DNA from: a phage
Length of the DNA: 64,000 nucleotides
Reading direction: 5' to 3' (one strand)
Sequence record: PZ338878.1
Part shown: positions 41,660-57,476 of the stretch, piece after piece
Layout of the letters: the number at the start of each line of letters is the position of its first letter
Numbering within the stretch: the first letter of the stretch is position 1
Notes under the pieces: generated by a model
Databases searched by the model: none
The model's input: the letters and a program-made list of their open reading frames with translations, nothing else
What the model was told of the DNA's origin: nothing
Program-made: the position numbers and the translations under genes

Positions 41660-41892
41660 TACACATTCTCCTCTTTTACCAATTCCATCGTTGAACTATC
41701 AAAACCATCTTTAGAAGAATAGGTATAGACAGAACGTAGTTCTCGCAGGACAGTAAATACATTAGGATCATCTAACCAAGCATCCTGGAGGAGAACATAA
41801 CGATCTTCATTGTCATACTGGACAGCAATCATAGAACCAGACAGTTTGTAAATTTTAATATTCATAATATATTTCTCCTTAAAGTAGACCAC
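41659..41892 (-). CDS. hypothetical protein
   Basis: 77 aa. Confidence 0.4.
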   Translation of the reverse strand: MVYFKEKYIMNIKIYKLSGSMIAVQYDNEDRYVLLQDAWLDDPNVFTVLRELRSVYTYSSKDGFDSSTMELVKEENV

Positions 41893-42982
41893 GTTTAACA
41901 GTTTGAATCATACCATCTTCAAGAGATTGCACTTCTTGAATGTAATCAATACGAGCAGCACGGGCTTCAGTGTTGATTCGGTTAGTTTCTTCCAACATTT
42001 TAACTAAGTTTTCTTGATCGCGACGTAATGTTTCAATATCCAATACTTGACGATTAGCAAGTTGCGTAGCTTCAATTTGGTTTTGTGCAGCCAGATCACT
42101 ACCCATTGCAATAGCAGCATTAAATTCATTCAGTACATTGTTCTGTGTATCGGCTGCTTTCTTCTGGCGTAGACTTTCAATATACATAGAAAAGTTTGCA
42201 GAGTAAGCAGGAATAACATTATTCACAATATTACGGGCTGATCGCATCAAACTTGCAGATACTTTCTGCATACTTTGTACACGTGGCCCCATCTGAACAC
42301 ACAGTAAACGCAAGGCTTTCAGGTCTGCAATACGAATTTCAAGCAGATCCATAGTATCACGAGTACGTTGACGCTCTTCTACTTCATTTTCAGGTAGTGT
42401 ATTAAGGCGAACTTCTTCTTTTTCATAAGTAGCTGTTAGAAGCTCTATATCCCTGTTTAAGCTAAGAGCATATTTTGCAATAGCCTCTTCTAAACGTTGC
42501 AGATATCGTAAAGAATCTTCTTCTTTTTTCAAGTCTGTTTGGAGTGTCTTTACCAAACCTTCAATACGATTATTGATGGTGTCAAATTCACCAAACAAAT
42601 CTTCTTTCATACCTAATACTTTCTTAACTAGTTTACCTAAGCCTTTAGATTGTTTAATAGAATTAGGATCAAGTTGCTTTGCTTGCTTAATAAGTGCAGT
42701 TAAACGCTCACTCATTTCATCTCCCTGAGATGAACGCTGGTGTTTAAGCACTTCCGCATTAAGGTTACGAAGAGTAAGTCCTGCATCAGCACCAACCTGT
42801 TCAATCTCTTCACGAGACATTGGAGGCAGCATTTGTACAGGTCGTGCAACAGCAGGGGCATATACAGGGCTTGCATCCATAGCAGTTGGAGCAAACAAAG
42901 ACTTACTTTTTTCTGTTGTTGCCGTGAATACACTCATTTCAGACGGTTTGCTTTTTACGGCACTGATAAAAGGACTGGACAT
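41879..42982 (-). CDS. telA: TelA-like toxic anion resistance family protein
   Basis: 367 aa, largely helical/coiled-coil, with size and pattern resembling TelA/KlaA; context with TerD/TerC. Confidence 0.55.
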   Translation of the reverse strand: MSSPFISAVKSKPSEMSVFTATTEKSKSLFAPTAMDASPVYAPAVARPVQMLPPMSREEIEQVGADAGLTLRNLNAEVLKHQRSSQGDEMSERLTALIKQAKQLDPNSIKQSKGLGKLVKKVLGMKEDLFGEFDTINNRIEGLVKTLQTDLKKEEDSLRYLQRLEEAIAKYALSLNRDIELLTATYEKEEVRLNTLPENEVEERQRTRDTMDLLEIRIADLKALRLLCVQMGPRVQSMQKVSASLMRSARNIVNNVIPAYSANFSMYIESLRQKKAADTQNNVLNEFNAAIAMGSDLAAQNQIEATQLANRQVLDIETLRRDQENLVKMLEETNRINTEARAARIDYIQEVQSLEDGMIQTVKRGLL

Positions 42983-44760: not shown

Positions 44761-45738
44761 TTAAGCAACAGACTGGTCTTCTTTTTCAGGGAAGATTAAA
44801 CTTGCAATAACACCCAGCCCCAGAGTACCTAACACAATATACATACTGATCGTCGGATCAATGTGTGCTGGCAGGAAACTCACTTTTGCGTGCAGAGTTT
44901 CTGCAAACGGGTGATACATCAGTTTTACACCCACAAATACCAGGACTACGATAACTGCTTTCTCCAGATGAACCAAATATTTCAGTGCAACACTAAGGAC
45001 AAAGAACAGAGCACGCAGACCTAAAATTGCACACAGCATTGAAGAAAATACAAGCAGAGGTTCTTGTGTCACTGCAATTACTGCTGGAACAGAGTCTACT
45101 GCAAAAATTACGTCAACCATTTCCATTACAAATACACAAACCAATGCAGGAGTTGCTACACGAACACCATTTTTGATTGTGAAGAACTTCTCACCATCCA
45201 TCTGATCAGATACAGGGAACAGCTTACGAACAATGCGAGTAGCCCAGTGCTTAGAGTAATCAACTTCTGCGTCATTATCTCCAGCAAATACCATTTTAGC
45301 TGCACAGAAAAGGATGACCGCACCGAAGAAGATATTAACATACCAACCCAAACTCAACAAGTAAGTGCCTACTGCTACAAACACACCTCGGAAGACAATC
45401 GCACCTGCAATACCCCAAAGTAGAATCTTGTGTTGCAAGTGTGTGCTTTTAATACCAAAACTTGCGAATACTGCCACAAATACTACTAAGTTATCTACAG
45501 AAAGAGATTTCTCCAACACATACCCACTCAAAAACAAGCTCGCAAAATCAGCACCGTGTTGGAAGTATACAAAACCATAGTAGGCTAACGATACCCCAAT
45601 CCAGAAAATTGACCAGCCAATTGCAGATTTAAATGAAATTTCTTTGTTTTCTCTGTGTCCAAAGAAATCAATACAAATCGACAAGACTAAAATACCCACT
45701 AAAACAACCACATCAATAATTGGGAAACCCAGTTGCAT
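44761..45738 (-). CDS. terC: TerC-family integral membrane protein
   Basis: 325 aa with multiple TM helices and the TerC-type LEKSLSVDNLVVF motif. Confidence 0.8.
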   Translation of the reverse strand: MQLGFPIIDVVVLVGILVLSICIDFFGHRENKEISFKSAIGWSIFWIGVSLAYYGFVYFQHGADFASLFLSGYVLEKSLSVDNLVVFVAVFASFGIKSTHLQHKILLWGIAGAIVFRGVFVAVGTYLLSLGWYVNIFFGAVILFCAAKMVFAGDNDAEVDYSKHWATRIVRKLFPVSDQMDGEKFFTIKNGVRVATPALVCVFVMEMVDVIFAVDSVPAVIAVTQEPLLVFSSMLCAILGLRALFFVLSVALKYLVHLEKAVIVVLVFVGVKLMYHPFAETLHAKVSFLPAHIDPTISMYIVLGTLGLGVIASLIFPEKEDQSVA

Positions 45739-46294: not shown

Positions 46295-47011
46295 TTATTT
46301 CAGTTTGTAAACAATTACATTTAAACCTTTGTTCACTAGAGTTTCTTCGATCATAAGTTTTACAATATTCCAAGAACCTCCAGCCAAACCACAACCAAGC
46401 ATTGGTAAACCTACAATTTTACCGCCTGAAGATACAACATCGTCTCCCATACTATCTAACGCATTGTAGATAGCTTCATAATTCAGGTCACGCTTACCTT
46501 CCTCACGACGACTATAACCATATTGTCCATATAAATTATAAATTGTCAAATTGTTTTCTGTATACTTAGTAAACGTACCTAATTTTTTATAATCACCACG
46601 TTTAGTGGCACAATCTGCTTTAAACGCACCAGGCCACTTGCTTTTAATTTTTGGTGCAATACCACTACCCATAGTGCAAAAACAGTTACAGCAGTGTGCT
46701 ATAGCGTCTATATCGCCTCTCTCTGCTGCTGCTAAAAGATCACCGTATACCTCAATGATACCTGGTGGATAACTTGTTACAATTTCATCTTCCCAGTACA
46801 TTTGCTCTACACCACCGATCAGTGCAAAGTTTTGTGTGATGCGATCATCAATATAATTAAGACCTGAAACATACACAGCATATTCATCCTGTGCTGTAAT
46901 GCCTTGTACACGAATTCTTAAGACACCATCTTTATCTGTTGCTACACGCCCAAAATCTTTTTCTGTAATATTGGTGATAGGATCTCCGAAAGTCGTCACT
47001 TTATTAGACAT
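46295..47011 (-). CDS. macro-domain protein (ADP-ribose binding/processing)
   Basis: ORF-track 46295-47077, start at internal ATG with AAAGGGGA RBS; GDIDAIAHCCNCFCTMGSGIAPKI and LPMLGCGLAGGSW resemble macro-domain motifs. Confidence 0.55.
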   Translation of the reverse strand: MSNKVTTFGDPITNITEKDFGRVATDKDGVLRIRVQGITAQDEYAVYVSGLNYIDDRITQNFALIGGVEQMYWEDEIVTSYPPGIIEVYGDLLAAAERGDIDAIAHCCNCFCTMGSGIAPKIKSKWPGAFKADCATKRGDYKKLGTFTKYTENNLTIYNLYGQYGYSRREEGKRDLNYEAIYNALDSMGDDVVSSGGKIVGLPMLGCGLAGGSWNIVKLMIEETLVNKGLNVIVYKLK

Positions 47012-47073
47012 AATAATCCCCTTTAACATTAGATTTGTTGATAATGTTGCTTTCAAAAAATTGACGCAGGAAA

Positions 47074-47862
47074 TCAAAGTTCTCTTTGTATTTTTTCAAT
47101 ATTATTGTAACCTTCTGCAAGGCAACCAAAGAACAGTTGTTCTACATAATACAAAGGAAGTTGTGAAAGTGCAATTTTAAAATCAACTTCGCTTTGACTC
47201 ATTAGATACTTAATAGGACGAACCAAACATTTAGCATCAGTTTCTTGCTTAATCATTTTAATAAAAGCTGCCAAGTTATTGATATAGTTGAAGTTAAGTG
47301 CAGCTTCGGTGTTGGCTTCTGTACCTTCATACTTTGCAAAGTACAGGAAAAACGTATCGTTTTCAACACCTTCTTTGTCTAAAATTTCAATAAGTTTTTC
47401 TTCGTGTGTTCCTGTAATATTAACATCATCAATGAAAATCAGAGTTTTATTACCCCAGAAATCACGATTGATAGAGAAAGTGTCACCATCGATCAAAGCC
47501 TTACGATCTTCTTTGCTAAGAAATCCATAATCATTGATATAACTCACTTTACGATGAACGATATCCCACTCTACTGCTTTACCTCCTTTGATAGAGATTA
47601 GGTAGTTGAGGTGATCTACAAAATGCTCAGATAACACTGTAGCTGCATTTTTCACATAGTTATATGGAGATGGAATAACAACAAAACTTTCATTTGCCAG
47701 TCGTTCTTCATACTTAGAAAAGAAACTTTCAGCCAAAATGCGCCCCATTCTTTTTGCTGCCTGGTTACTACCAAACTTTAGTTTGGAATAATCTGCAATA
47801 TTAAATTTTGCTTCCTTCAGGTTAGTAAAAGTATTAGCAAAATGTTGAATTTGATTACGCAT
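47074..47862 (-). CDS. phosphoribosyltransferase (PRTase)-like protein
   Basis: PRPP-binding-type motif KTLIFIDDVNITGTHEEK. Confidence 0.6.
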   Translation of the reverse strand: MRNQIQHFANTFTNLKEAKFNIADYSKLKFGSNQAAKRMGRILAESFFSKYEERLANESFVVIPSPYNYVKNAATVLSEHFVDHLNYLISIKGGKAVEWDIVHRKVSYINDYGFLSKEDRKALIDGDTFSINRDFWGNKTLIFIDDVNITGTHEEKLIEILDKEGVENDTFFLYFAKYEGTEANTEAALNFNYINNLAAFIKMIKQETDAKCLVRPIKYLMSQSEVDFKIALSQLPLYYVEQLFFGCLAEGYNNIEKIQREL

Positions 47863-48511
47863 TAATAAGTTCCTCTTTTTTAAGTTTAGCCAACAAGTCT
47901 TCTGGATTAATAATATGACAGAACTTCATCCCTATGTCAACAGCTTTTCCATCATAAATCAAACTATCTCCAACGTGTAAAATCTCCTCTGGTGCGAGAT
48001 CAAACGTTACCATTTCATCAAAAGAGAGTTTAAAAAACCTAGGATCTGGTTTACACAAGCAAAACTCATCAGAAAAATGCATAAAGTCAAATGGTAATTT
48101 TGTTAAGCCAGAATATACAGCTAAGAAACTACCTGGTACAAAATTAGTATTGCTCTTAATACTCAAAGAATAGATTGAACTCAGCTCTTCCAATTTCTTG
48201 CAAAGCTCAGGGTTCAATATTGGAGGATGTTTTATAAACATTGCTAAACAGTCTCTTTTTAACCCATCCACTTTATCAAGATCAATGTTCAAACGAGTAG
48301 AAAGTGTTTCCCAAGCATTCCTAGACGTTCCACAAATGCCTTTTTCTGCTTTTAAATCCAGGAGAGTTTTTACCTCTTTATATACGGTAGCTGCTTCTGC
48401 CTCAGAACAAGAGGCATACTCGGCAATAACCTTGTTGCGTTCTTCTGCATACAAAGGATTAGCAGTAATAAGAGTATTCCATACATCAAAAGAAATATGC
48501 TTAACAGTCAT
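47855..48511 (-). CDS. HAD-superfamily hydrolase-like protein
   Basis: ORF-track 47855-48529, start at ATG 48511 after GGAGG; motif I-like FDVWNTL, motif III K in CKPDPRFF, motif IV HVGDSLIYD. Confidence 0.5.
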   Translation of the reverse strand: MTVKHISFDVWNTLITANPLYAEERNKVIAEYASCSEAEAATVYKEVKTLLDLKAEKGICGTSRNAWETLSTRLNIDLDKVDGLKRDCLAMFIKHPPILNPELCKKLEELSSIYSLSIKSNTNFVPGSFLAVYSGLTKLPFDFMHFSDEFCLCKPDPRFFKLSFDEMVTFDLAPEEILHVGDSLIYDGKAVDIGMKFCHIINPEDLLAKLKKEELINA

Positions 48512-48513
48512 TT

Positions 48514-48669
48514 TTAATCCTCCGTCCAAAAGAATATCATCTGCTTAATTTTATTGATCTCTTGATGTAGTAACTTTCCAGCATGTGATTGATCTTTAAT
48601 ATTGACAGCAAGAATTTCAAGCTCCGTTAGTTTTTCCTGAATAGCTTTATATTCATCATCTGTAAGCAT
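48514..48669 (-). CDS. small helical protein (about 51 aa)
   Basis: Unlisted short ORF (MLTDDEYKAIQEKLTELEILAVNIKDQ...) with purine-rich RBS, filling the gap between the 48681 ORF and the HAD gene. Confidence 0.25.
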   Translation of the reverse strand: MLTDDEYKAIQEKLTELEILAVNIKDQSHAGKLLHQEINKIKQMIFFWTED

Positions 48670-48884: not shown

Positions 48885-48912
48885 ATAAATAAAGGAGGCT
48901 TTCGCCTCCTTT
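48880..48912 (-). terminator. rho-independent terminator downstream of the ATPase gene
   Basis: AAAGGAGGC-TTTC-GCCTCCTTT followed on the minus strand by TTTATTTAT. Confidence 0.6.
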
Positions 48913-48918
48913 TATCAC

Positions 48919-50079
48919 TTAGTAAGAACGACCACCAAACACATACTCTGTGTAGTTTTTACGTTCTTTGTTTTTAATAACAACTTCAATGTTGTTACCT
49001 TTATCATCGGTGAACATAAAGTGATAACCGTCACCACCCATTGTACGAATGTGTTTTTCATCATACGTTAGCAAGATACGGTCTACACCCCAGTAGTAGT
49101 CACCTTCTTCATCTTTATCTTCTACGGTAACAATCCCTTCCATTTCAGGAAGATGCTCTTCTCCTGACTTATGATCTACAGCTACAACATAACGATTACC
49201 GCTAAACAAACCTTGTGCTGTCATACCGTCAATATCGGTATCTGACGAAACATCTGCTGTACGATCTACACCATTAACTTTCAGAAGTTTAACTTCTTTT
49301 GCAGCATAGCGGTGTTCAGTAATACTGATACCCATTAATGCAAGTGCATCAGAGAATTTGTCATTAGGATAACGGTTAAGTTCTTCTACTAATGATTGAA
49401 CAATATCAAAGTTCAAATCCACGGAGAGATTATAAAGCGTTTCAAAATCTGGTAAGAAGGCTTTGTTCTCCAGATTTTTAGCCAGATAATCATCCATAGT
49501 AGCTTTAGGTAGTTTCTTATAGCTAAAACTGTAGAAAATACGGCTAGGACGATTACGCAAAAATTCTGATACATAACCATCATTTTTAGTCAATACAAAC
49601 AGCTTGTCATAACCACCAACACCATCCAGCAGGGTAAGCAAACCATCTTGTGCATCTTTTTCAGCATACAGTTTATCAAATTCATCGATCATAATCATCA
49701 CAGGTTGTGTGATTTTAGACATAAAGTTGATAAAGCCTTCACCATTAAAAGCACTACCGATAGAAATAGTAGGAATACCCATTTCACGAAGAGCAGAAGA
49801 CAGCATTTTAGCTTGCAAAGTTTTACCGCTACCTTTCGTACCCTCAAGGAGAACACCTGTGTTTTTACCTTTGCGGCTAAGGAACGTCTTGATAATACGT
49901 TCTGATTTATCATCAGTATCACCGTATGTTACTGAAGGTACTTCCATATCATTTTTAGGATACAGGAAGAACTCACCACTTTGAGTAACACCTACACCAA
50001 AAGTTCCTGCTGGAATTTCTTCAATATCTGTACCAGACTTCTGACGCAGGAAGATTTGATTGCCGAATACTGTAAACAT
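48919..50079 (-). CDS. P-loop NTPase, AAA-like ATPase
   Basis: Walker A GVLLEGTKGSGKT, Walker B VMIMIDEFD, sensor-1-like FVLTKND, Arg-rich RNRPSR; extra N- and C-terminal regions. Confidence 0.6.
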   Translation of the reverse strand: MFTVFGNQIFLRQKSGTDIEEIPAGTFGVGVTQSGEFFLYPKNDMEVPSVTYGDTDDKSERIIKTFLSRKGKNTGVLLEGTKGSGKTLQAKMLSSALREMGIPTISIGSAFNGEGFINFMSKITQPVMIMIDEFDKLYAEKDAQDGLLTLLDGVGGYDKLFVLTKNDGYVSEFLRNRPSRIFYSFSYKKLPKATMDDYLAKNLENKAFLPDFETLYNLSVDLNFDIVQSLVEELNRYPNDKFSDALALMGISITEHRYAAKEVKLLKVNGVDRTADVSSDTDIDGMTAQGLFSGNRYVVAVDHKSGEEHLPEMEGIVTVEDKDEEGDYYWGVDRILLTYDEKHIRTMGGDGYHFMFTDDKGNNIEVVIKNKERKNYTEYVFGGRSY

Positions 50080-50099
50080 AGTTTTCTCCTCTATTTAAT

Positions 50100-50570
50100 T
50101 TAGTCAGATTCCCAAATGTTGTCTTTCTTAACCCACATTCGTTGATTATCTGAACCTCTATAACGTTTCGTTGTTGGTTGATTCATATCATACTTACCAT
50201 CTATCACTATGTCAACCAGTTTTTTAATTTTTTCTGGAATTTCTTCAAAAAGATATCCTGTATATAAGACAATATCTTTTTTGTTTCCAAAACAATCTCT
50301 TACCTTCTCAAGAACATACTCTACAGTGTCAATGTTCTCTTTGTCAAGAGGTTCACCACCTAAAACTGTTAATCCTTTAATGAAAGGTCGAGATAAATCT
50401 TCCAAGATAAGATCTAATGTTTCAACAGTGAACTCTTGTCCGTAATTATACGACCAGGCTTTCTGGTTAAAGCAGCCACGGCAACCGTGGCTACAACCGC
50501 TCACCCACAAAGAGCATCTTACACCGTCACCGTTGAGCATGTCAACAGGTTCATATCCGGCGTAATTCAA
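50100..50570 (-). CDS. nrdG: anaerobic ribonucleotide reductase activating protein
   Basis: Radical-SAM cysteine cluster CSLWVSGCSHGCRGCFN; overlaps nrdD stop. Confidence 0.8.
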   Translation of the reverse strand: MNYAGYEPVDMLNGDGVRCSLWVSGCSHGCRGCFNQKAWSYNYGQEFTVETLDLILEDLSRPFIKGLTVLGGEPLDKENIDTVEYVLEKVRDCFGNKKDIVLYTGYLFEEIPEKIKKLVDIVIDGKYDMNQPTTKRYRGSDNQRMWVKKDNIWESD

Positions 50571-52366
50571 AAATGTTTCTCCCTTTCTAGTACCTCTTGC
50601 ATTTTACCTTTGTTATAAGGGCGAGAGTTAGGGGCAGAAAGGTATCCTGACACTCTTCTGATCACAGATATGGATTCTTCTTCATGATTACCGCAACTTG
50701 GACACTCGAAGCCTTTAGCCGTTGCTTTAAATTCACCATGAAAACCACATTTGAAACACTGATCTACAGGTTGGTTCACGCCAAAATAAGGAATTTTATT
50801 GTAGGCATAATCTACAAGAGTTTCCAGTGCTTGCAAGTTATTTTTAAGGTTTGGTGTTTCTACATAACCTATGTTCCCACCATTACTAATTTGTGCAAAA
50901 CCTTCCTCATAATCCCATTTTTGGAACGGGGTAGTGTGCATCCATACAGGTTGATGGAAAGAGTTTGTCAAGTAGTCACGATCAATAGAACCAGGATAGC
51001 GATCATTTAATGCTTTGGCAAATTTATAGCACAAGGATTCTGCTGGTGTTCCATACAAACTAAAAGCTAAACCAGAACGTTCTTTAAATGTGCAACAGAT
51101 ATCCTTCATATATTGAAGGATGTTTTTACCCATTGCTTTTGGATTGGTGTTATTTGGGTATAAAATCTCCATAGCTTCTGCTAAACCTACATAACCGATA
51201 CTAATAGAGGCATAGCCACCTTCAAATAGTTTACCAATCTCTTCATTAGCTTCTAATCGAGCTAAAGCCCCTTCCATAAACAATGTAGGGTTTTGAGATG
51301 CTTTGGTATGTCTAATACGGTTAACACGTAGCATATGTGCCTTATACGCCATCTCCATATGTTGTTCCAACAGTTCAGTAAATAAGATGCCCTTTTCACG
51401 GGACTCTGCTGCAATGATAGGTAAGTTTAAAGAAACTACGCCTAAGTTGAAACGACCATCATATTTTTCACCTTGCTCTGTTGCATAGTATGACAAGAAA
51501 CTACGGCAACCCATGCTTGTGACGCGACCATCTGAAGATCCTGTAACTTCTTTGTTTAAAGGTACAGAGATAAAATCAGGATAAATGCGTTCAGCACAAC
51601 ACTCCATTGCCAGTTGCTTCAAATCATAGTTTGGATCACCAGCTTTCATGTTAACACCATCTTCCAAGAAGAAGATAACTTTAGGAAACACAGGAGTTAC
51701 CCTATCTTTTCCTAATCCTTGTTTGTGCACCATTAGGTAGTTTTTAGTGATCATTCTACCAAAAGCAGAGGTATCCAAACCTAAACTAATTGTTATAAAA
51801 GGTGACTGACCATTTACACTCATTAGGGTGTTCACCTGGTAGATTAAAGTTTGCATTGCATCATAGACCTGTTTATCTACCATACGCATAGCAATATCAT
51901 AATCGCCAACATCGGCATATATTTTATTAAAACTTGCTTTAACGTATTGACTAAGCCCAGTATCAATATGTGCACAAGTTTGTCCACCATATTGGCTAGA
52001 AGCTACTGCTTGAATAATTTGAGTTAGAACAGTAGTTGCTACACCGATAGATTTTGGTTTTTCAATATGTGCATTACCAATACGGAAACCGTTCTCAAGC
52101 ATATCTTGGTAATTTACCAGGCAACAATTAGTTAAAGGTGAGAGTAAATAATCTAAATCGTGAATGTGACCATACCCGCTTTTATGCCATTCTGCTAGAT
52201 CTTCCGGTAAAATATGGGTCATTGCCATGTGCTTGCTCAGGATACCTGCTAGTAAGTCTCGGTGAGTATTAACAATCATTGCAGGTTTGTTTGCATTTTC
52301 ACGAGTAAATTCTTCGGATGTTTGTTCGAGGAATCCGATTACATCCTCATATAGTTTTTGGGTCAT
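50567..52366 (-). CDS. nrdD: anaerobic ribonucleoside-triphosphate reductase
   Basis: ORF-track 50567-52396, start at ATG 52366 after GGAGG; C-terminal Zn ribbon CFKCGF...CPSCGN and glycyl-radical-type RVSGYL. Confidence 0.85.
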   Translation of the reverse strand: MTQKLYEDVIGFLEQTSEEFTRENANKPAMIVNTHRDLLAGILSKHMAMTHILPEDLAEWHKSGYGHIHDLDYLLSPLTNCCLVNYQDMLENGFRIGNAHIEKPKSIGVATTVLTQIIQAVASSQYGGQTCAHIDTGLSQYVKASFNKIYADVGDYDIAMRMVDKQVYDAMQTLIYQVNTLMSVNGQSPFITISLGLDTSAFGRMITKNYLMVHKQGLGKDRVTPVFPKVIFFLEDGVNMKAGDPNYDLKQLAMECCAERIYPDFISVPLNKEVTGSSDGRVTSMGCRSFLSYYATEQGEKYDGRFNLGVVSLNLPIIAAESREKGILFTELLEQHMEMAYKAHMLRVNRIRHTKASQNPTLFMEGALARLEANEEIGKLFEGGYASISIGYVGLAEAMEILYPNNTNPKAMGKNILQYMKDICCTFKERSGLAFSLYGTPAESLCYKFAKALNDRYPGSIDRDYLTNSFHQPVWMHTTPFQKWDYEEGFAQISNGGNIGYVETPNLKNNLQALETLVDYAYNKIPYFGVNQPVDQCFKCGFHGEFKATAKGFECPSCGNHEEESISVIRRVSGYLSAPNSRPYNKGKMQEVLEREKHF

Positions 52367-52379
52367 TAATCCTCCGTGG

Positions 52380-52410
52380 AAAATAAAAGCCAGCATTAAG
52401 CTGGCTTTAG
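52380..52410 (-). terminator. terminator-like hairpin upstream of nrdD
   Basis: GCCAGC-ATTAA-GCTGGC stem-loop with flanking A/T tracts, between the 52456 gene and nrdD. Confidence 0.5.
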
Positions 52411-52455: not shown

Positions 52456-53406
52456 TTAGTCAAGGTTTTTGGTAATACGTGTACAACCATCAGAAGTCAA
52501 ACCGTCAACTTGAGTTTCCCAAGTACCATGAATATTTCGGAACAATGTTGTTACACCTTTTGGTTCATTAATAATGATTGCCATAACAAGTTTAGGATCG
52601 ATAACAGACATAATCTTTTCCTCAATACCCTCTGTAATAACATTATTGCGCACAATATTAATTGCATCTTCTTGTACAGTAAGAACACTTACGTTCTTAA
52701 GAGTATATACCTGCTGTGTAGTGTAAATGATACGAACATAACTTACAGAACGAGTAGGCACAGGTTTACGCGGTCGGCGAAAACGTGGTTTTGGTGAAGA
52801 TTCAGTTTTACTTTCATCTTTTGAATAATACTCCTCAAACAGTTTAGTAAATGTTTTTACATCAACTACAAACCGATCTTTCCGATATGGAGAATTCTTA
52901 TGTGCACCATTAATACCACTGTTTTCATCGAAGAAAGTAATGTTTTCTTCAGTTGAATACATTAGATAATGATCTGCATTTTTCCAATGTGGTTGTGGAC
53001 AACGAGGATTACAAACTGAAAGCAGATAACTAATATCTTCTTCCGTGGCATCAGTATCCAGGAAACACGTATTATGCACAGTCAGTTGTACTTTTTCAGC
53101 CATATCTTTTTCTTTATCCTCATTAGCAAGATATTCAGTACGAATAATTTCCAGAAAACCTTCAGGTGTTACTTCCATAAATGTATATTCAGGATGAAGT
53201 TCCATATATTCAAATCCACAACCATCTAACTGCTGTAGAAAGTTAGGGTAGAAGAACAAATCATTAACACTGTGAATCAGATCATTGATTTCTGCTTCAG
53301 TTGTGTAGCCAAAACTCTTGTGAATTGCTTCGTTAAGAATATGCAGGATACCCATCTCTTCTGCTGCTTTTTTAACTTCCAGTTTATTAGCGTAAAATGC
53401 AATCAT
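52456..53406 (-). CDS. hypothetical protein
   Basis: 316 aa; basic patch PKPRFRRPRKPVPTR. Confidence 0.5.
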   Translation of the reverse strand: MIAFYANKLEVKKAAEEMGILHILNEAIHKSFGYTTEAEINDLIHSVNDLFFYPNFLQQLDGCGFEYMELHPEYTFMEVTPEGFLEIIRTEYLANEDKEKDMAEKVQLTVHNTCFLDTDATEEDISYLLSVCNPRCPQPHWKNADHYLMYSTEENITFFDENSGINGAHKNSPYRKDRFVVDVKTFTKLFEEYYSKDESKTESSPKPRFRRPRKPVPTRSVSYVRIIYTTQQVYTLKNVSVLTVQEDAINIVRNNVITEGIEEKIMSVIDPKLVMAIIINEPKGVTTLFRNIHGTWETQVDGLTSDGCTRITKNLD

Positions 53407-53870: not shown

Positions 53871-54443
53871 TTATTTGCTAATGCTTTGAATTTTATTTAC
53901 AACACGGTTTATTGCCAGTGAAGCCCTAGGCTCTGCAATACCTGTTGCATAGATATAAGGATGACCTTTTGGAGACTCCCTCATACCGAATGAACCTAAT
54001 TCTAAACCATATTCATCCTCTACGTCAACCCCAATATTAGTGGGTACTAAATATGTTTTAACTCCATAATAAGTAGAGAAGAAACAGCGCATAGCGTTAG
54101 CATACTCTTCAATTGTAGCATCAGGGTAGAACTCAATCAACTCCAATTTCAAGAAAATATTAAAATGAGTATCATCTAAATTTTCTTCTGTACGGTAACA
54201 TGGTGTTAGTGCCATATACGGATTACCTGCTGCAAATTCAAAACCATCCTTCTCCATTTGCAGGAAAGATTGTTCTGCACTAGCTACATAGTATTTACCG
54301 TTAGGATGCCCTAATGGGCGATCCTCTTTATTTTCTGGTAATGTGTACGCCAGTATATCAGCATCCACGAGATATGGAACTTCTAACATTTGTGCAAATC
54401 GACCATAGTAATCAATAGCTTGAGCTATTACTGCAACATTCAT
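53871..54443 (-). CDS. hypothetical protein, possibly class II aminoacyl-tRNA-synthetase-like core
   Basis: MALTPCYRTEEN...FLKLELIEF weakly resembles class II aaRS motif 2; only 190 aa. Confidence 0.35.
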   Translation of the reverse strand: MNVAVIAQAIDYYGRFAQMLEVPYLVDADILAYTLPENKEDRPLGHPNGKYYVASAEQSFLQMEKDGFEFAAGNPYMALTPCYRTEENLDDTHFNIFLKLELIEFYPDATIEEYANAMRCFFSTYYGVKTYLVPTNIGVDVEDEYGLELGSFGMRESPKGHPYIYATGIAEPRASLAINRVVNKIQSISK

Positions 54444-54701: not shown

Positions 54702-57476
54702 TTAGTTTACCAGTTTATTTATGTCTGGTAAAAGATTTATTTCACCTAAAAAATCACCTTCACCTTCCTCTAGCCAACTCTCATATGCTTGTGCATGATT
54801 ATAGTTACCATCAAAAGAATCTGCAACAAATTTTTCTACAGTTTTTCGAGATGTGCCAGCGCCAAATACACCAAGTTTAATACCATTGATCGGTAAAGTA
54901 GGGCTTGTTGGTACTTTCTCTGTTGCAACACGGTTGATATCTATAATCTCTTGTACAGTTGTATTCCATTGTAAGCATTTAACACAACGGGTATGCGCTA
55001 CATACAGTAAGTTTCGCTCTGCCTCTTCTAGTCCTACCCATTCACCAGTCTTTTTATCATAGTTGGAAGGAAAATCATTAGCAACAATAACCTGATCCCA
55101 CTCCAAACCTTTAGACTTATGTGCTGTAGTCAGTGTGACTTTTGCTGTAGGAGAATTTCTATGCGTTCTAAGTGTATGTGCTATAGTGTTTGCCTTGCCA
55201 GAAACTACGATGTTTAACAAGCGTTTAGCATCTGGATCAGCCTCTGCACACTCAACAAATTCATTCCAGTCTGCGTAAGGTAATACAGTTTCATGTTTTA
55301 CTTTCTCAATATCCCCTCTCCGAAGAGCATTAACACTATCCACCATAGAGATAAAATCCCTGGTATCTACGTTAATAATAATTTCTTCCCCATCTGCAAT
55401 ACGATCCATTGCCTCCATAAGCAAGGTTAAATTCTTGCGAAAGATGATAGTGTAAGGTTTTGTATAGTCTACAACATCTGATTTGTAGCTACCTACTACA
55501 GTATCAAAGCCTTTACCAACCAAAGGATGACGCAAAGGTTCTTTATCACTTAAAATCATATTCGCAATGTTTGCCACTTTGGGGCCAAAACGGAAGCAAG
55601 CAGTTAATGGAAGCTCTGCCCCATACTTAGCTGTTTCAATCATCATATTAGAGCTACCTCTAAATTGATAAATGCAGTTGTGGCTAAGAATTTCATTGCC
55701 AAAAAAGTTAGCAGTATCTTCTACTTCAATATCATAATAGATACCCTCACTATCTACAATGTCCACAATCTCTTCTGCCGTTACAGTATCACCATCTTTT
55801 ACTAACACAGACATGCCTTTAAACAAACCCGCTGCCGGAATTAAATTATATTTGGGAGTGTTCACAGAGGACATGCATTCTTTTAAAGATGCAAACGGAA
55901 CTATTTCAAGGATCTTTTGTGCAAAACTCAATGCTTCACGATAAGAATTGAAATATTTACGTACACGGTAACGACCTTCCAATTTAGCAACACTTACGCT
56001 TACACCTGCTTCAATGAGTGAGGCATAGATTGGCATTTCACTTTCTGTCCACTCAAAGCTAACTTGTGTTCCTTTACAACCTTGTGCTCGCAAAGTCACT
56101 GTTAACATTTTTCTTGCATCTACTGCACAATTGATGCTGTGCCAATGTGGATAAGCAAAATGATAGTCTTTATCCTCTAAAAGTTTAAAACCATTTTGTC
56201 CGAATTGTTCAAAGATATTGTTGATCCTTTCTTGATTAATACCGCGTGAACTTGCTTCAAATACACAAGTAGGAATGCCATATTGTAAACTGTATGCCAT
56301 TTCTTTTTCCATAGCAGCTTCACGGTTTTCAACAATATCCAACACCCACAACTTCTGTGCTTTTTCAGAACGTGTACGTTGCCCCAGTTTAGAAAAACCT
56401 TCTTTATCATCGAATTTGTTAGTGATCCCTACTCGGAAACCTAAATCTTTTCTCCACATTAGGTATACCACCATCTGATCATCTTTCAGAACATAAGGTG
56501 AAGCCCAAATACGATGGTTATGTGTCATATCTAAAGTCTTACCTTTAGCAGTAATAATATTCCTACCTTTTGTACGTGTAGATAAAGTCTTATTTGTTAC
56601 TTTTCTAAATGTAACTTTACCGTTAGAATAAGACTCTACCTTATCACCGATTTGCAGGTCTTTCATTGTAACCTGACCATTTTCGGTATTAAGTACCGTG
56701 TTTTCTGACACACATTGGAATTCATCACCAACTACCACAATTTGTTTGGCAGATTTAGCATTCCGCAGAATAGACAAGAATGCAGGGTTAACATCCTGGA
56801 ATTCATCCCCAAAAATAATGTCATAACCAAGATCAGCACCAGACAATTCAAACAATTTTACATAGGTGTCATGCGTCATCAAAGTATCTGTGTTAGGATC
56901 AATGCGCTCTCGCCACAATTGTTTTGCATACTTAACTACTTCTGTAATTAGTTTGTGTTCGTTAATACCTTTTCTTTTAATATCTGCAAGATGTACACCA
57001 GGAAAATGTTTACGGCTGATAAAAGGATCATCCGAAAATTCAAACTTACCTACGGTTTGCTTGATCATTAAACCAATCATAGCACGAGTTAAAAGTGTTT
57101 TCCCTCGTTTATCAATAAGATTATTAATCTTAAATTTCTTTGCTATCTCACTACCTGTACCTGCAACGTTAACATACTGTCCTTCTGGTCGTGACAGTTT
57201 TGCACGTAAACGATGATCCAGGAATTGATAGCAAATGGAATGCAATGTACGGCATTCTACATTTGGTGGCATCTTACGCCGTGCTTCTTCTGCCATGCTT
57301 TTATTGAAAGCTAAGTAAAGAATGCGATCTTCTGTACTGTTAGCCAGCAAATAAAGTGTTGACGTTTTTCCTGATCCAGATTTAGCTTGGATAGTTAAAA
57401 ACCGATGATCTGGAAAAGCCTCCTTAATAGCTGTTTGCTCTTCTGTTGGAGTAAAACTCAACTCTTTCTTAGCCAT
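54702..57476 (-). CDS. UvrD/Rep-like superfamily I DNA helicase containing an intein
   Basis: ORF-track 54702-57515, start at ATG 57476; Walker A AKSGSGKTST, motif II GDEFQD, motif III split by insertion (VVVGDEFQ | intein | CIYQFRGSS). Confidence 0.75.
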   Translation of the reverse strand: MAKKELSFTPTEEQTAIKEAFPDHRFLTIQAKSGSGKTSTLYLLANSTEDRILYLAFNKSMAEEARRKMPPNVECRTLHSICYQFLDHRLRAKLSRPEGQYVNVAGTGSEIAKKFKINNLIDKRGKTLLTRAMIGLMIKQTVGKFEFSDDPFISRKHFPGVHLADIKRKGINEHKLITEVVKYAKQLWRERIDPNTDTLMTHDTYVKLFELSGADLGYDIIFGDEFQDVNPAFLSILRNAKSAKQIVVVGDEFQCVSENTVLNTENGQVTMKDLQIGDKVESYSNGKVTFRKVTNKTLSTRTKGRNIITAKGKTLDMTHNHRIWASPYVLKDDQMVVYLMWRKDLGFRVGITNKFDDKEGFSKLGQRTRSEKAQKLWVLDIVENREAAMEKEMAYSLQYGIPTCVFEASSRGINQERINNIFEQFGQNGFKLLEDKDYHFAYPHWHSINCAVDARKMLTVTLRAQGCKGTQVSFEWTESEMPIYASLIEAGVSVSVAKLEGRYRVRKYFNSYREALSFAQKILEIVPFASLKECMSSVNTPKYNLIPAAGLFKGMSVLVKDGDTVTAEEIVDIVDSEGIYYDIEVEDTANFFGNEILSHNCIYQFRGSSNMMIETAKYGAELPLTACFRFGPKVANIANMILSDKEPLRHPLVGKGFDTVVGSYKSDVVDYTKPYTIIFRKNLTLLMEAMDRIADGEEIIINVDTRDFISMVDSVNALRRGDIEKVKHETVLPYADWNEFVECAEADPDAKRLLNIVVSGKANTIAHTLRTHRNSPTAKVTLTTAHKSKGLEWDQVIVANDFPSNYDKKTGEWVGLEEAERNLLYVAHTRCVKCLQWNTTVQEIIDINRVATEKVPTSPTLPINGIKLGVFGAGTSRKTVEKFVADSFDGNYNHAQAYESWLEEGEGDFLGEINLLPDINKLVN
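55677..56714 (-). mobile_element. intein (about 346 aa) inserted in helicase motif III
   Basis: Begins with Cys after DEFQ (CVSENTVLNTENGQVTMKDLQIGDKV), ends ...FGNEILSHN followed by +1 Cys; codons checked at both junctions. Confidence 0.65.

Follow-up and report, generated by a model that had tools for sequence, protein, structure and literature searches.

What manner of machine does a virulent phage maintain when it keeps an AAA-like ATPase with an apparently atypical P-loop and a long acidic C-terminus between nrdDG and a group of Ter-associated genes? This question is raised by one gene in the 64,000-nucleotide (nt) stretch of sequence record PZ338878.1 that was analyzed here and is referred to below as the window. 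The initial annotation of the gene, made from the letters alone, offered three possibilities for its product, namely a remodeling ATPase, a clamp-loader-like factor or a part of a phage-encoded interference system. The first is the best supported of the three, although it is a role that we infer rather than one that has been shown. We find the product to be an AAA ATPase that works like a motor of the classical clade, in a minimized and divergent branch, and with moderate confidence we propose that it assembles into a ring that uses ATP to remodel a protein substrate, with a conserved N-terminal domain (N-domain) that would dock the substrate and a fast-evolving acidic C-terminal domain (C-domain) that would provide specificity.

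The extent of the gene had been called exactly: an open reading frame (ORF) of 386 codons runs on the minus strand from an ATG at 50079 to a stop codon at 48919-48921, behind a ribosome-binding site (Table 1), and the remaining ORFs listed over 48919-50079 on both strands are short, at 40-91 amino acids (aa). A protein identical to the window ATPase exists in the public collection; a word-indexed search returned 132 homologues, on contigs of ~145-155 kb and ~350-370 kb; PHROG 2376 ('ATPase', category 'other') matches with E=2e-104 over aa 1-376 of 386; and when 1.84 billion cluster representatives (50% identity) were searched exhaustively with a profile, 7,031 of them matched at E<=1e-3, of which 3,235 reached E<=1e-30. 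As such, the gene is real, far beyond chance. The source of the window is a phi92-like virulent E. coli myophage (Justusliebigvirus, Stephanstirmvirinae). Matches to the gene were found in 57 GenBank phage records, 55 of which cover most of it at no less than 95% nt identity; these are mostly Justusliebigvirus, at 95-99%, with 99% for W22, PD114, ECGD1 and PHB05. At the protein level identity reaches 99-100% to annotated genes of W22, ECGD1, PHB05 and phi92, and the best match inside phi92 is gp190, from which the window ATPase differs in nothing material. The orthologs go by the GenBank names 'ATPase', 'hypothetical protein' and 'putative ATPase or Zn metalloprotease'. The phi92 record (FR775895.2) also carries a 'hypothetical tRNA', PHI92_t019, annotated antisense within gp190 at 117581-117668 (approximately 49351-49438 of the window, plus strand); neither ARAGORN nor an Rfam E-value search found a transfer RNA (tRNA) in the corresponding window sequence.

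The motor retains the catalytic apparatus of an AAA+ enzyme, as judged by residue conservation counted in an alignment of 35 family members. The P-loop that had been singled out as atypical does differ from the AAA consensus GPPGTGKT, Thr-Lys replacing Pro-Pro, but it fits the canonical GxxGxGK[ST] and represents a conserved family signature, G-[TED]-K-G-[SA]-G-K-[TS], in which K82 is kept by 33 and S84 by 29 of the 35 relatives. The Walker B with its DE pair is present as described, D132, E133 and F134 being invariant, and the AAA+ hallmarks G80..K86-T87, I131-D132-E133 and N166 are found in 35/35. Invariance likewise extends to R177, P178 and R180 of the NRPSR motif, which align to the RPGR of Cdc48/p97. 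At the start of a lid helix, where the sensor-2 Arg of AAA+ proteins would be expected, F224-D225 is invariant, and the lid displays the conserved motif (N/S)FD..Q.LVEELNR; as read from the motif rather than from a superposition, the Phe-Asp pair may be the counterpart of the classical AAA 'GAD'. An aromatic residue (F or Y) occupies aa 111 in 33/35 members, and the SAFNGEG stretch of the window ATPase resembles the SKWVGEG pore loop of fidgetin-like 1.

Profile and fold comparisons bear out the earlier designation of the product as AAA-like. Pfam AAA (PF00004) is matched over aa 76-164 at 29.4 bits against a gathering cut-off of 21.2 (E=1.2e-6), and Pfam otherwise returns only P-loop families, all below threshold. 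When a profile built from the 35 members was searched against all PDB sequences, the top match was to Cdc48/p97/VAT (E=5e-12 to 1e-10), followed by Rix7, PEX1, Afg2, NVL and Msp1 (to E=2e-6); the alignment to Cdc48/p97 spans Walker A/B, LLTxxDG, sensor 1 and RPxR. Taken together, profile and fold comparisons put the motor closest to Cdc48/p97, Bcs1, Trip13 and FtsH. With Cdc48/p97/VAT, Rix7/NVL, Afg2 and PEX1 the window ATPase thus shares Walker A/B, LLTxxDG, the sensor-1 Asn, a two-arginine RPxR and an Asp in place of the sensor-2 Arg. It differs from the Cdc48/p97 group (~15-20% identity) in having one AAA module rather than two, in lacking the double-psi-barrel N-domain and the beta2-alpha2 helix, in the shortening of both pore-loop regions and in its unique C-terminal beta domain. 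Since the classical motifs are kept, but the beta2-alpha2 helix is missing and the segment from Walker B to LLTLLDG is shorter, the protein is best described as a minimized, divergent motor of the classical type. Bcs1 (16% identity) possesses a membrane anchor that the window ATPase lacks, and lacks the C-domain in turn; the bacterial Trip13/Pch2-like protein of the HORMA:CdnC:Trip13 system (PDB 6p8v) is 14% identical and has a different N-domain, and no HORMA or cyclase partner is encoded in the window.

Two further domains flank the motor. The N-domain consists of five short predicted strands in residues 2-42 followed by a conserved P..YG linker, with P23, L39, P48, Y52 and G53 conserved across the family; it is conserved family-wide, given that the family alignments begin at residue 1-2. 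The acidic C-terminal domain had been estimated at 150 aa, and while its Asp/Glu-rich character is confirmed (D+E 19.9%, as compared to 12.6% for aa 61-250; net charge -10, isoelectric point (pI) 4.9), its length is 136 aa. Structure prediction, which had been proposed as a check, returned a compact, beta-rich fold with high confidence (predicted local distance difference test score, pLDDT, of about 85-95; mean 85.9 for the full-length model and 85.6 for the domain alone, with 85 of its 136 residues at or above 90). On this model the C-terminal region is a folded domain and not a low-complexity acidic tail. A fold search with it found no analogue among solved structures. Among the close relatives aligned, N269, G270, G294 and D323 are invariant or nearly so, and no conserved catalytic-looking residues are seen in the domain. 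The three-domain architecture is common to distant phage relatives in BFVD (20-34% identity, TM scores of 0.57-0.72 over ~380-430 alignment columns), the C-domain is family-wide, and the longer relatives examined contain no informative domain fusions. The three domains have evolved at different paces, as measured against the ortholog of Klebsiella phage phi1_175008 (76% protein identity overall); synonymous divergence is saturated in this comparison, and as such only identity and nonsynonymous divergence (dN) are given. The motor is 92% identical (dN 0.046), the N-domain 82% (dN 0.13) and the C-domain 50% (dN 0.42), so that the C-domain has evolved approximately 9x faster than the motor.

Classical AAA proteins are ring-shaped protein unfoldases or disassemblases, and the mechanism we favor for the phage enzyme would be of this kind. 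ATP would be bound and hydrolyzed where neighboring subunits of a ring meet, the ring probably being a hexamer. Binding and hydrolysis are likely because the P-loop lysine, the Walker B Asp-Glu, the sensor-1 Asn and the two trans-acting arginines of RPxR are intact; assembly into a ring is probable from the invariant arginines only. The ATP cycle would pull on, unfold or disassemble a protein, as it does in Cdc48/p97, Bcs1, Trip13, FtsH, spastin and Msp1. The small N-terminal beta domain would lie at the entry face, where a substrate or adaptor would dock, and the acidic C-terminal beta domain, on the opposite face, would serve in lineage-specific targeting. The substrate would be a protein rather than a nucleic acid. 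Each of the three domains is acidic (pI 4.2, 5.35 and 4.9), as is the C-domain, by net charge, in 35/35 sampled members (-2 to -23), which argues against direct nucleic-acid binding. The ATPase would be soluble and of a single module, encoded by a self-contained transcription unit with its own terminator and dependent on no obligatory partner gene. The protein contains no cysteine, HExxH or SRC and no transmembrane segment, the highest Kyte-Doolittle mean over 19 residues being 0.99.

Several observations weigh against this proposal. In the scheme of Erzberger and Berger from 2006, the classical clade is said to be defined by a short helix between beta2 and alpha2, before pore loop 1. The AlphaFold2 model of the window ATPase has a strand at 104-107, a loop of ~6 residues and a helix at 114-121, with no such short helix predicted, and the HMMER alignment places beta2 of Cdc48 as an insertion relative to the family profile. 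The stretch from Walker B to LLTLLDG, which is the pore-loop-2 region, is ~10 residues shorter than in p97. In the pore-loop-like F111-N112-G113 the middle residue is polar and the Gly is found in only 18/35 members, and neither G113 nor E114 is conserved across the family. With a short beta2-alpha2 loop and a shortened pore-loop-2 region, threading through the pore is not assured. Furthermore, tRNA or transfer-messenger RNA (tmRNA) genes and RNA-repair enzymes neighbor the gene at one third of the related loci, which hints that its target may be a ribonucleoprotein and not simply a protein. Lastly, a full-text literature search found no paper and no experiment on any family member; papers co-mentioning Stephanstirmvirinae, Bas60 or NARP were retrieved, and none concerns this ATPase gene.

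The family itself has a great many members of much the same size, and essentially all of them are viral. By tblastn it is present in 304 GenBank phage records, among them Phapecoctavirus, the jumbo phage Serratia BF, Salmonella phage 7-11, Aeromonas, Acinetobacter and Proteus phages, and also the Lactococcus 949 group, Bacillus and Lactobacillus myophages, Staphylococcus phages and crAss-like phages. Nearly all of the best 150 of the 7,031 profile matches are 347-443 aa in length. A scan of prokaryotes at one genome per species (185,579 species) yielded only 22 loci, 20 in metagenome-assembled genomes and 2 in isolate assemblies. The phi92-like phages carry a second family copy, of the phi92 gp221 type, which is ~38% identical to the first, aligns over 95% of the length and has the same three-domain architecture as gp190 with a shorter C-domain. 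It lies ~17 kb beyond the ATPase gene and outside the window (134148-135275 in PHB05, 134118-135242 in W22), the 64-kb window itself containing no paralog. This second copy is encoded on the other strand, in a group of small genes that look early, and it is followed, directly or past one small ORF, by a CapR-domain protein annotated as 'endonuclease', which in ESCO5 has a T5orf172 match below threshold.

One more specific version of the remodeling proposal, which we judge unlikely, is that the ATPase is a chaperone linked to translation or RNA repair and acts upon a ribonucleoprotein or translation product, with candidates including stalled or tmRNA-tagged chains, tRNA-protein complexes and repair complexes scaffolded by Ro/TROVE or SPFH proteins. 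Genes for tRNA or tmRNA occur within the 4-5 kb flanks of 35 of 106 related loci, and in 21 of these 35 the ORF immediately next to them is that of the ATPase, where 9.9 would be expected for an ORF drawn at random from the same loci. This enrichment is modest (~2-fold), its null is biased in that the loci are centered on the ATPase, and the loci are not phylogenetically independent; we consequently regard the adjacency as an unexplained lead and not as evidence of function. Islands of tRNA genes attract accessory genes in general. A tmRNA is present in 10 loci. In 8 of them, which fall into three groups by shared neighborhood, it precedes the ATPase on the same strand and ends ~45-270 nt before it, and in two further loci (L085 and L096) it lies within 1.3-2.1 kb downstream; Rfam, applied to 7 of the 10, confirmed a permuted tmRNA in each (84-138 bits). 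Enzymes of RNA repair recur as well. In Microbacterium phage Pumpernickel (89216-100223) a large tRNA array contains few protein genes, of which the ATPase is one, flanked by tRNA-Arg genes at 59 nt on its upstream and 45 nt on its downstream side, with an RtcB-like ligase 1.7 kb away; in a Pararhizobium contig it is flanked by an RNA ligase and Thg1; and in Ochrobactrum phage OC the order PnuC, NadR, ATPase is followed ~2.8-3.5 kb downstream by a polynucleotide kinase and RNA ligase 1. Aeromonas phage LAh_6 (NC_048774.1, 77603-86634) carries a Ro60-vWA-like DUF2828/DUF7788 protein (labeled 'RNA-binding protein') and a Band_7 protein downstream of the ATPase, together with a tRNA detected by ARAGORN 8 nt from the gene and absent from the GenBank annotation, and a Band_7 protein also follows the ATPase in Salmonella phage 7-11. 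In 2016 Burroughs and Aravind reportedly put forward the idea that TROVE and SPFH modules serve RNA-repair systems as cofactors, which offers a lead. Counting against a translation-linked role, ARAGORN found no tRNA or tmRNA in the 64-kb window and none around the paralog in PHB05, and the ATPase is acidic throughout.

Another specific version, to which we attach equally little weight, is a disassemblase for host takeover or counter-defense, in which the variable C-domain would recognize a host complex and the motor would dismantle it. In its favor are a fast C-domain upon a conserved motor, two divergent paralogs in one genome (gp190-type and gp221-type) and an essentially phage-restricted family; members are found among small early genes and next to operons with known anti-defense roles, namely NAMPT and NMNAT-Nudix (NARP2-like), PnuC and NadR (NARP3-like) or Prs and NAMPT (NARP1-like), and also next to rIIA/rIIB and Macro. 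Eight loci have the arrangement NMNAT-Nudix, Macro, NAMPT, ATPase, Prs and NAMPT lie 3-5 kb downstream in Salmonella phage 7-11, and in several lineages the ATPase directly follows or lies near NAD+-salvage operons resembling NARP1, NARP2 or NARP3. Such operons have been shown to counter NAD+-depleting defenses, and the NARP pathway identities are taken from the same papers (10.1101/2024.02.11.579819, PMC13464706), in which the ATPase is not mentioned. The association is guilt by proximity only. Trip13 of the HORMA:CdnC:Trip13 system (6p8v) is among the closest folds, yet the similarity is no better than that to Bcs1 or NSF. Searches with NCBIfam and PADLOC profiles gave nothing significant: the best PADLOC matches were mad8 (E=0.0014) and SspF (0.017), at the level of the P-loop only, and identity as a known anti-phage defense protein was rejected. 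With these matches and with no conserved partner gene, the interference system that had been suggested for the locus finds no direct support.

A bolder proposal would place the protein, as a phage-exclusive three-domain machine, within a translation-protection and counter-defense toolkit of large virulent phages tied to tRNA/tmRNA, RNA-repair and NAD+ operons. Its possible roles would be to disassemble host effectors that attack tRNA or NAD+ or to handle chains tagged by phage tmRNA, and the gp190 and gp221 paralogs would bear different C-domains for different targets. We regard this as speculative and somewhat improbable.

We are very doubtful of an accessory role in DNA replication or recombination as a helicase loader, initiator or clamp-loader-like factor. 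Clamp loaders (T4 gp44, RFC, gamma/tau) share with the window ATPase a compact AAA+ core without large insertions, and the PHROGs next after 2376, at E=3.7e-5 or worse, include two labeled as clamp loader of DNA polymerase (E=3.7e-5 and 6e-4), with NCBIfam matches to Hda, RFC and DnaX at E 0.005-0.17. The crAss-like homolog has a primase on one side and an exonuclease on the other, a UvrD-like helicase is found 4.6 kb upstream of the ATPase in the window, and in one record a relative is named 'putative DNA replication protein'. The profile matches are weak, the family-specific score being 350.7 bits against 24.6 (14x), and the protein lacks the SRC motif, the sensor-2 Arg, the helical collar and any DNA-binding domain, its C-domain being beta-rich. 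The AlphaFold2 model has no initiator-specific insertion in helix alpha2, RPxR and LLTxxDG are classical AAA motifs, the protein is acidic, and the neighborhood is non-replicative in most lineages. The clamp-loader-like factor put forward initially is therefore disfavored, and the profile searches revealed no clear homology to any characterized clamp loader or packaging ATPase. A packaging ATPase or terminase was rejected on profile, motif or fold, and a STAND NTPase by matches below the Pfam cut-offs (nSTAND3 18.9 vs 27.2, nSTAND_NTPase5 14.3 vs 34, NACHT 13.8 vs 26.7). The ATP-dependent, FtsH-like Zn metalloprotease of several GenBank records owes its label to the AAA module that FtsH shares, and is extremely improbable: there is no HExxH, M41 protease domain or match, or transmembrane helix, the C-domain has no conserved catalytic residues and a fold unrelated to any solved structure, and with neither cysteine, HExxH nor hydrophobic segment the label is unfounded.

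Returning to the proposed remodeling ATPase, its gene is best seen as a transcription unit of its own, which here stands directly behind an nrdDG insertion. The gene had been described as bracketed by a strong terminator. One strong intrinsic terminator does stand on its 3' side, with a 9-bp stem and a GAAA loop (dG -18.8 kcal/mol, z -6.3; 0/200 shuffles fold as well), but none is present on the 5' side, where the nrdG stop codon lies 20 nt from the ATPase ATG. The sole upstream signal is a promoter-like site within nrdG, ~110 nt before the ATG, which could allow transcription of the ATPase independent of nrdDG. In Klebsiella phage phi1_175008 a hairpin is found at the same position with the same GAAA loop and compensated stem changes (AAAGGGGC/GCCCCUUU, dG -17.9); nrdDG is absent there, and a promoter-like TTGATT-17-TATACT lies within the 67-nt upstream spacer. 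It is this conserved 3' terminator, along with a Klebsiella ortholog that lacks nrdDG and has a promoter-like site of its own, that argues for a separate unit, and the earlier suggestion of a stand-alone unit is a reasonable one.

The location between nrdDG and the Ter-associated genes was likewise given correctly, the neighbors on both sides being on the same strand (Table 1). A functional tie to nrdDG was rejected, orthologs in the Klebsiella phage and in a metagenomic contig having no nrdDG upstream. An operon with the Ter/HAD/PRTase/Macro cluster is unsupported, in that the terminator and two small ORFs intervene and Macro is found in 17 of ~75 loci, in two ATPase clades. The neighbors differ from one lineage to another. 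When all flanking ORFs of 80 IMG/VR loci were clustered, no neighbor family was present in more than 17 of ~75 loci, and there is thus no obligatory partner gene. The recurrent families are Macro (17), rIIA (17), GDSL hydrolase (15), rIIB (14), NAMPT (11, often ending 75-94 nt upstream), WYL_2 (10), NMNAT-Nudix (9) and an SPFH-like lipoprotein (7), nearly all inside one broad ATPase clade. One neighbor family (c8, 107 aa) that appeared PTH2-like by eye was dropped, having no Pfam or PDB sequence match.

A number of side observations concern these neighbors. The UvrD-like helicase (54702-57476, minus, 924 aa) contains an intein (Pfam Intein_splicing/Hint, aa ~254-600); the helicase coding sequence (CDS) at the same place in phage Eryne is annotated at only 579 aa, and the insertion may thus be polymorphic among close relatives. 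The nrdD gene (50567-52396) is one continuous ORF of 609 aa. The phi92 annotation gives it as two CDSs together with a 'spliced variant', and in IMG/VR contig 2974717474 there are two ORFs (298 + 323 aa), which suggests an intervening sequence in some relatives only. Downstream, the HAD hydrolase, PRTase_3 (ComF-like) and Macro genes are tightly packed, followed by the TerC and TelA homologues (46295-48529, 44761-45738, 41879-42982, minus); GenBank labels around HAD/PRTase_3/Macro vary, and include 'Zot-like toxin', 'orotate phosphoribosyltransferase' and 'phosphatase'. The 316-aa ORF (52456-53406) is called 'ribonucleotide reductase' in relatives and has no supporting Pfam domain, only PHROG 15930 with the same label, and the 190-aa ORF (53871-54443), called 'histidyl tRNA synthetase', has no supporting Pfam domain either; both names look propagated rather than evidenced.

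Table 1. Coordinates of the ATPase gene, its encoded domains and motifs, and the adjacent signals and genes in the window.
Feature	Position	Strand	Basis or remark
AAA ATPase CDS (386 aa + stop)	48919..50079	minus	ortholog of phi92 gp190 / PHB05 JR317_gp184
Ribosome-binding site GAGGAG	50086..50091	minus	read from sequence; 6 nt upstream of ATG
N-terminal small beta domain + linker, aa 1-55	49915..50079	minus	AlphaFold2 model, family alignment
AAA alpha/beta nucleotide-binding subdomain, aa 56-190	49510..49914	minus	Pfam, AlphaFold2 model, fold and profile comparison
Walker A / P-loop GTKGSGKT, aa 80-87	49819..49842	minus	translation, family alignment
Candidate pore loop 1, short beta2-alpha2 loop SAFNGEGF, aa 109-116	49732..49755	minus	model, alignment
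Walker B VMIMIDEFD, aa 127-135	49675..49701	minus	translation, family alignment
Sensor-1 asparagine N166	49582..49584	minus	invariant in alignment
NRPSR, aa 176-180, second-region-of-homology-like	49540..49554	minus	aligned to RPGR of Cdc48/p97
Helical lid subdomain, aa 191-250	49330..49509	minus	AlphaFold2 model, family alignment
C-terminal acidic beta-rich domain, aa 251-386	48922..49329	minus	AlphaFold2 model, fold search, alignments
Intrinsic terminator AAAGGAGGC-GAAA-GCCUCCUUU, then AUUUAU	48891..48912	minus	folding; begins 6 nt after stop
Promoter-like TTGACA-17-TATGAT	50187..50215	minus	consensus match only (11/12, sigma-70-like); within 3' part of nrdG
Upstream genes in order: intein-bearing UvrD-like helicase, small ORF, 190-aa ORF, YqeY-domain protein, 316-aa ORF, nrdD, nrdG		minus	
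Downstream order: ATPase, terminator, two small ORFs, HAD hydrolase, PRTase_3, Macro; farther TerC, TelA		minus	

For the window itself these findings change little: dozens of phage genomes with near-identical copies already label the gene 'ATPase', and its product behaves as an ordinary AAA ATPase. The interest lies rather in the family, which has thousands of diverged members in large virulent phages of Gram-negative, Gram-positive and Bacteroidota hosts (the last being crAss-like phages), is almost absent from cellular genomes, and is endowed with a C-domain that has no solved counterpart. Given that so many lytic phages keep an ATP-driven remodeler of this kind, it likely acts on something central in the infected cell, and the recurrent tRNA/tmRNA, RNA-repair and NAD+-salvage neighbors offer concrete candidates for its target.

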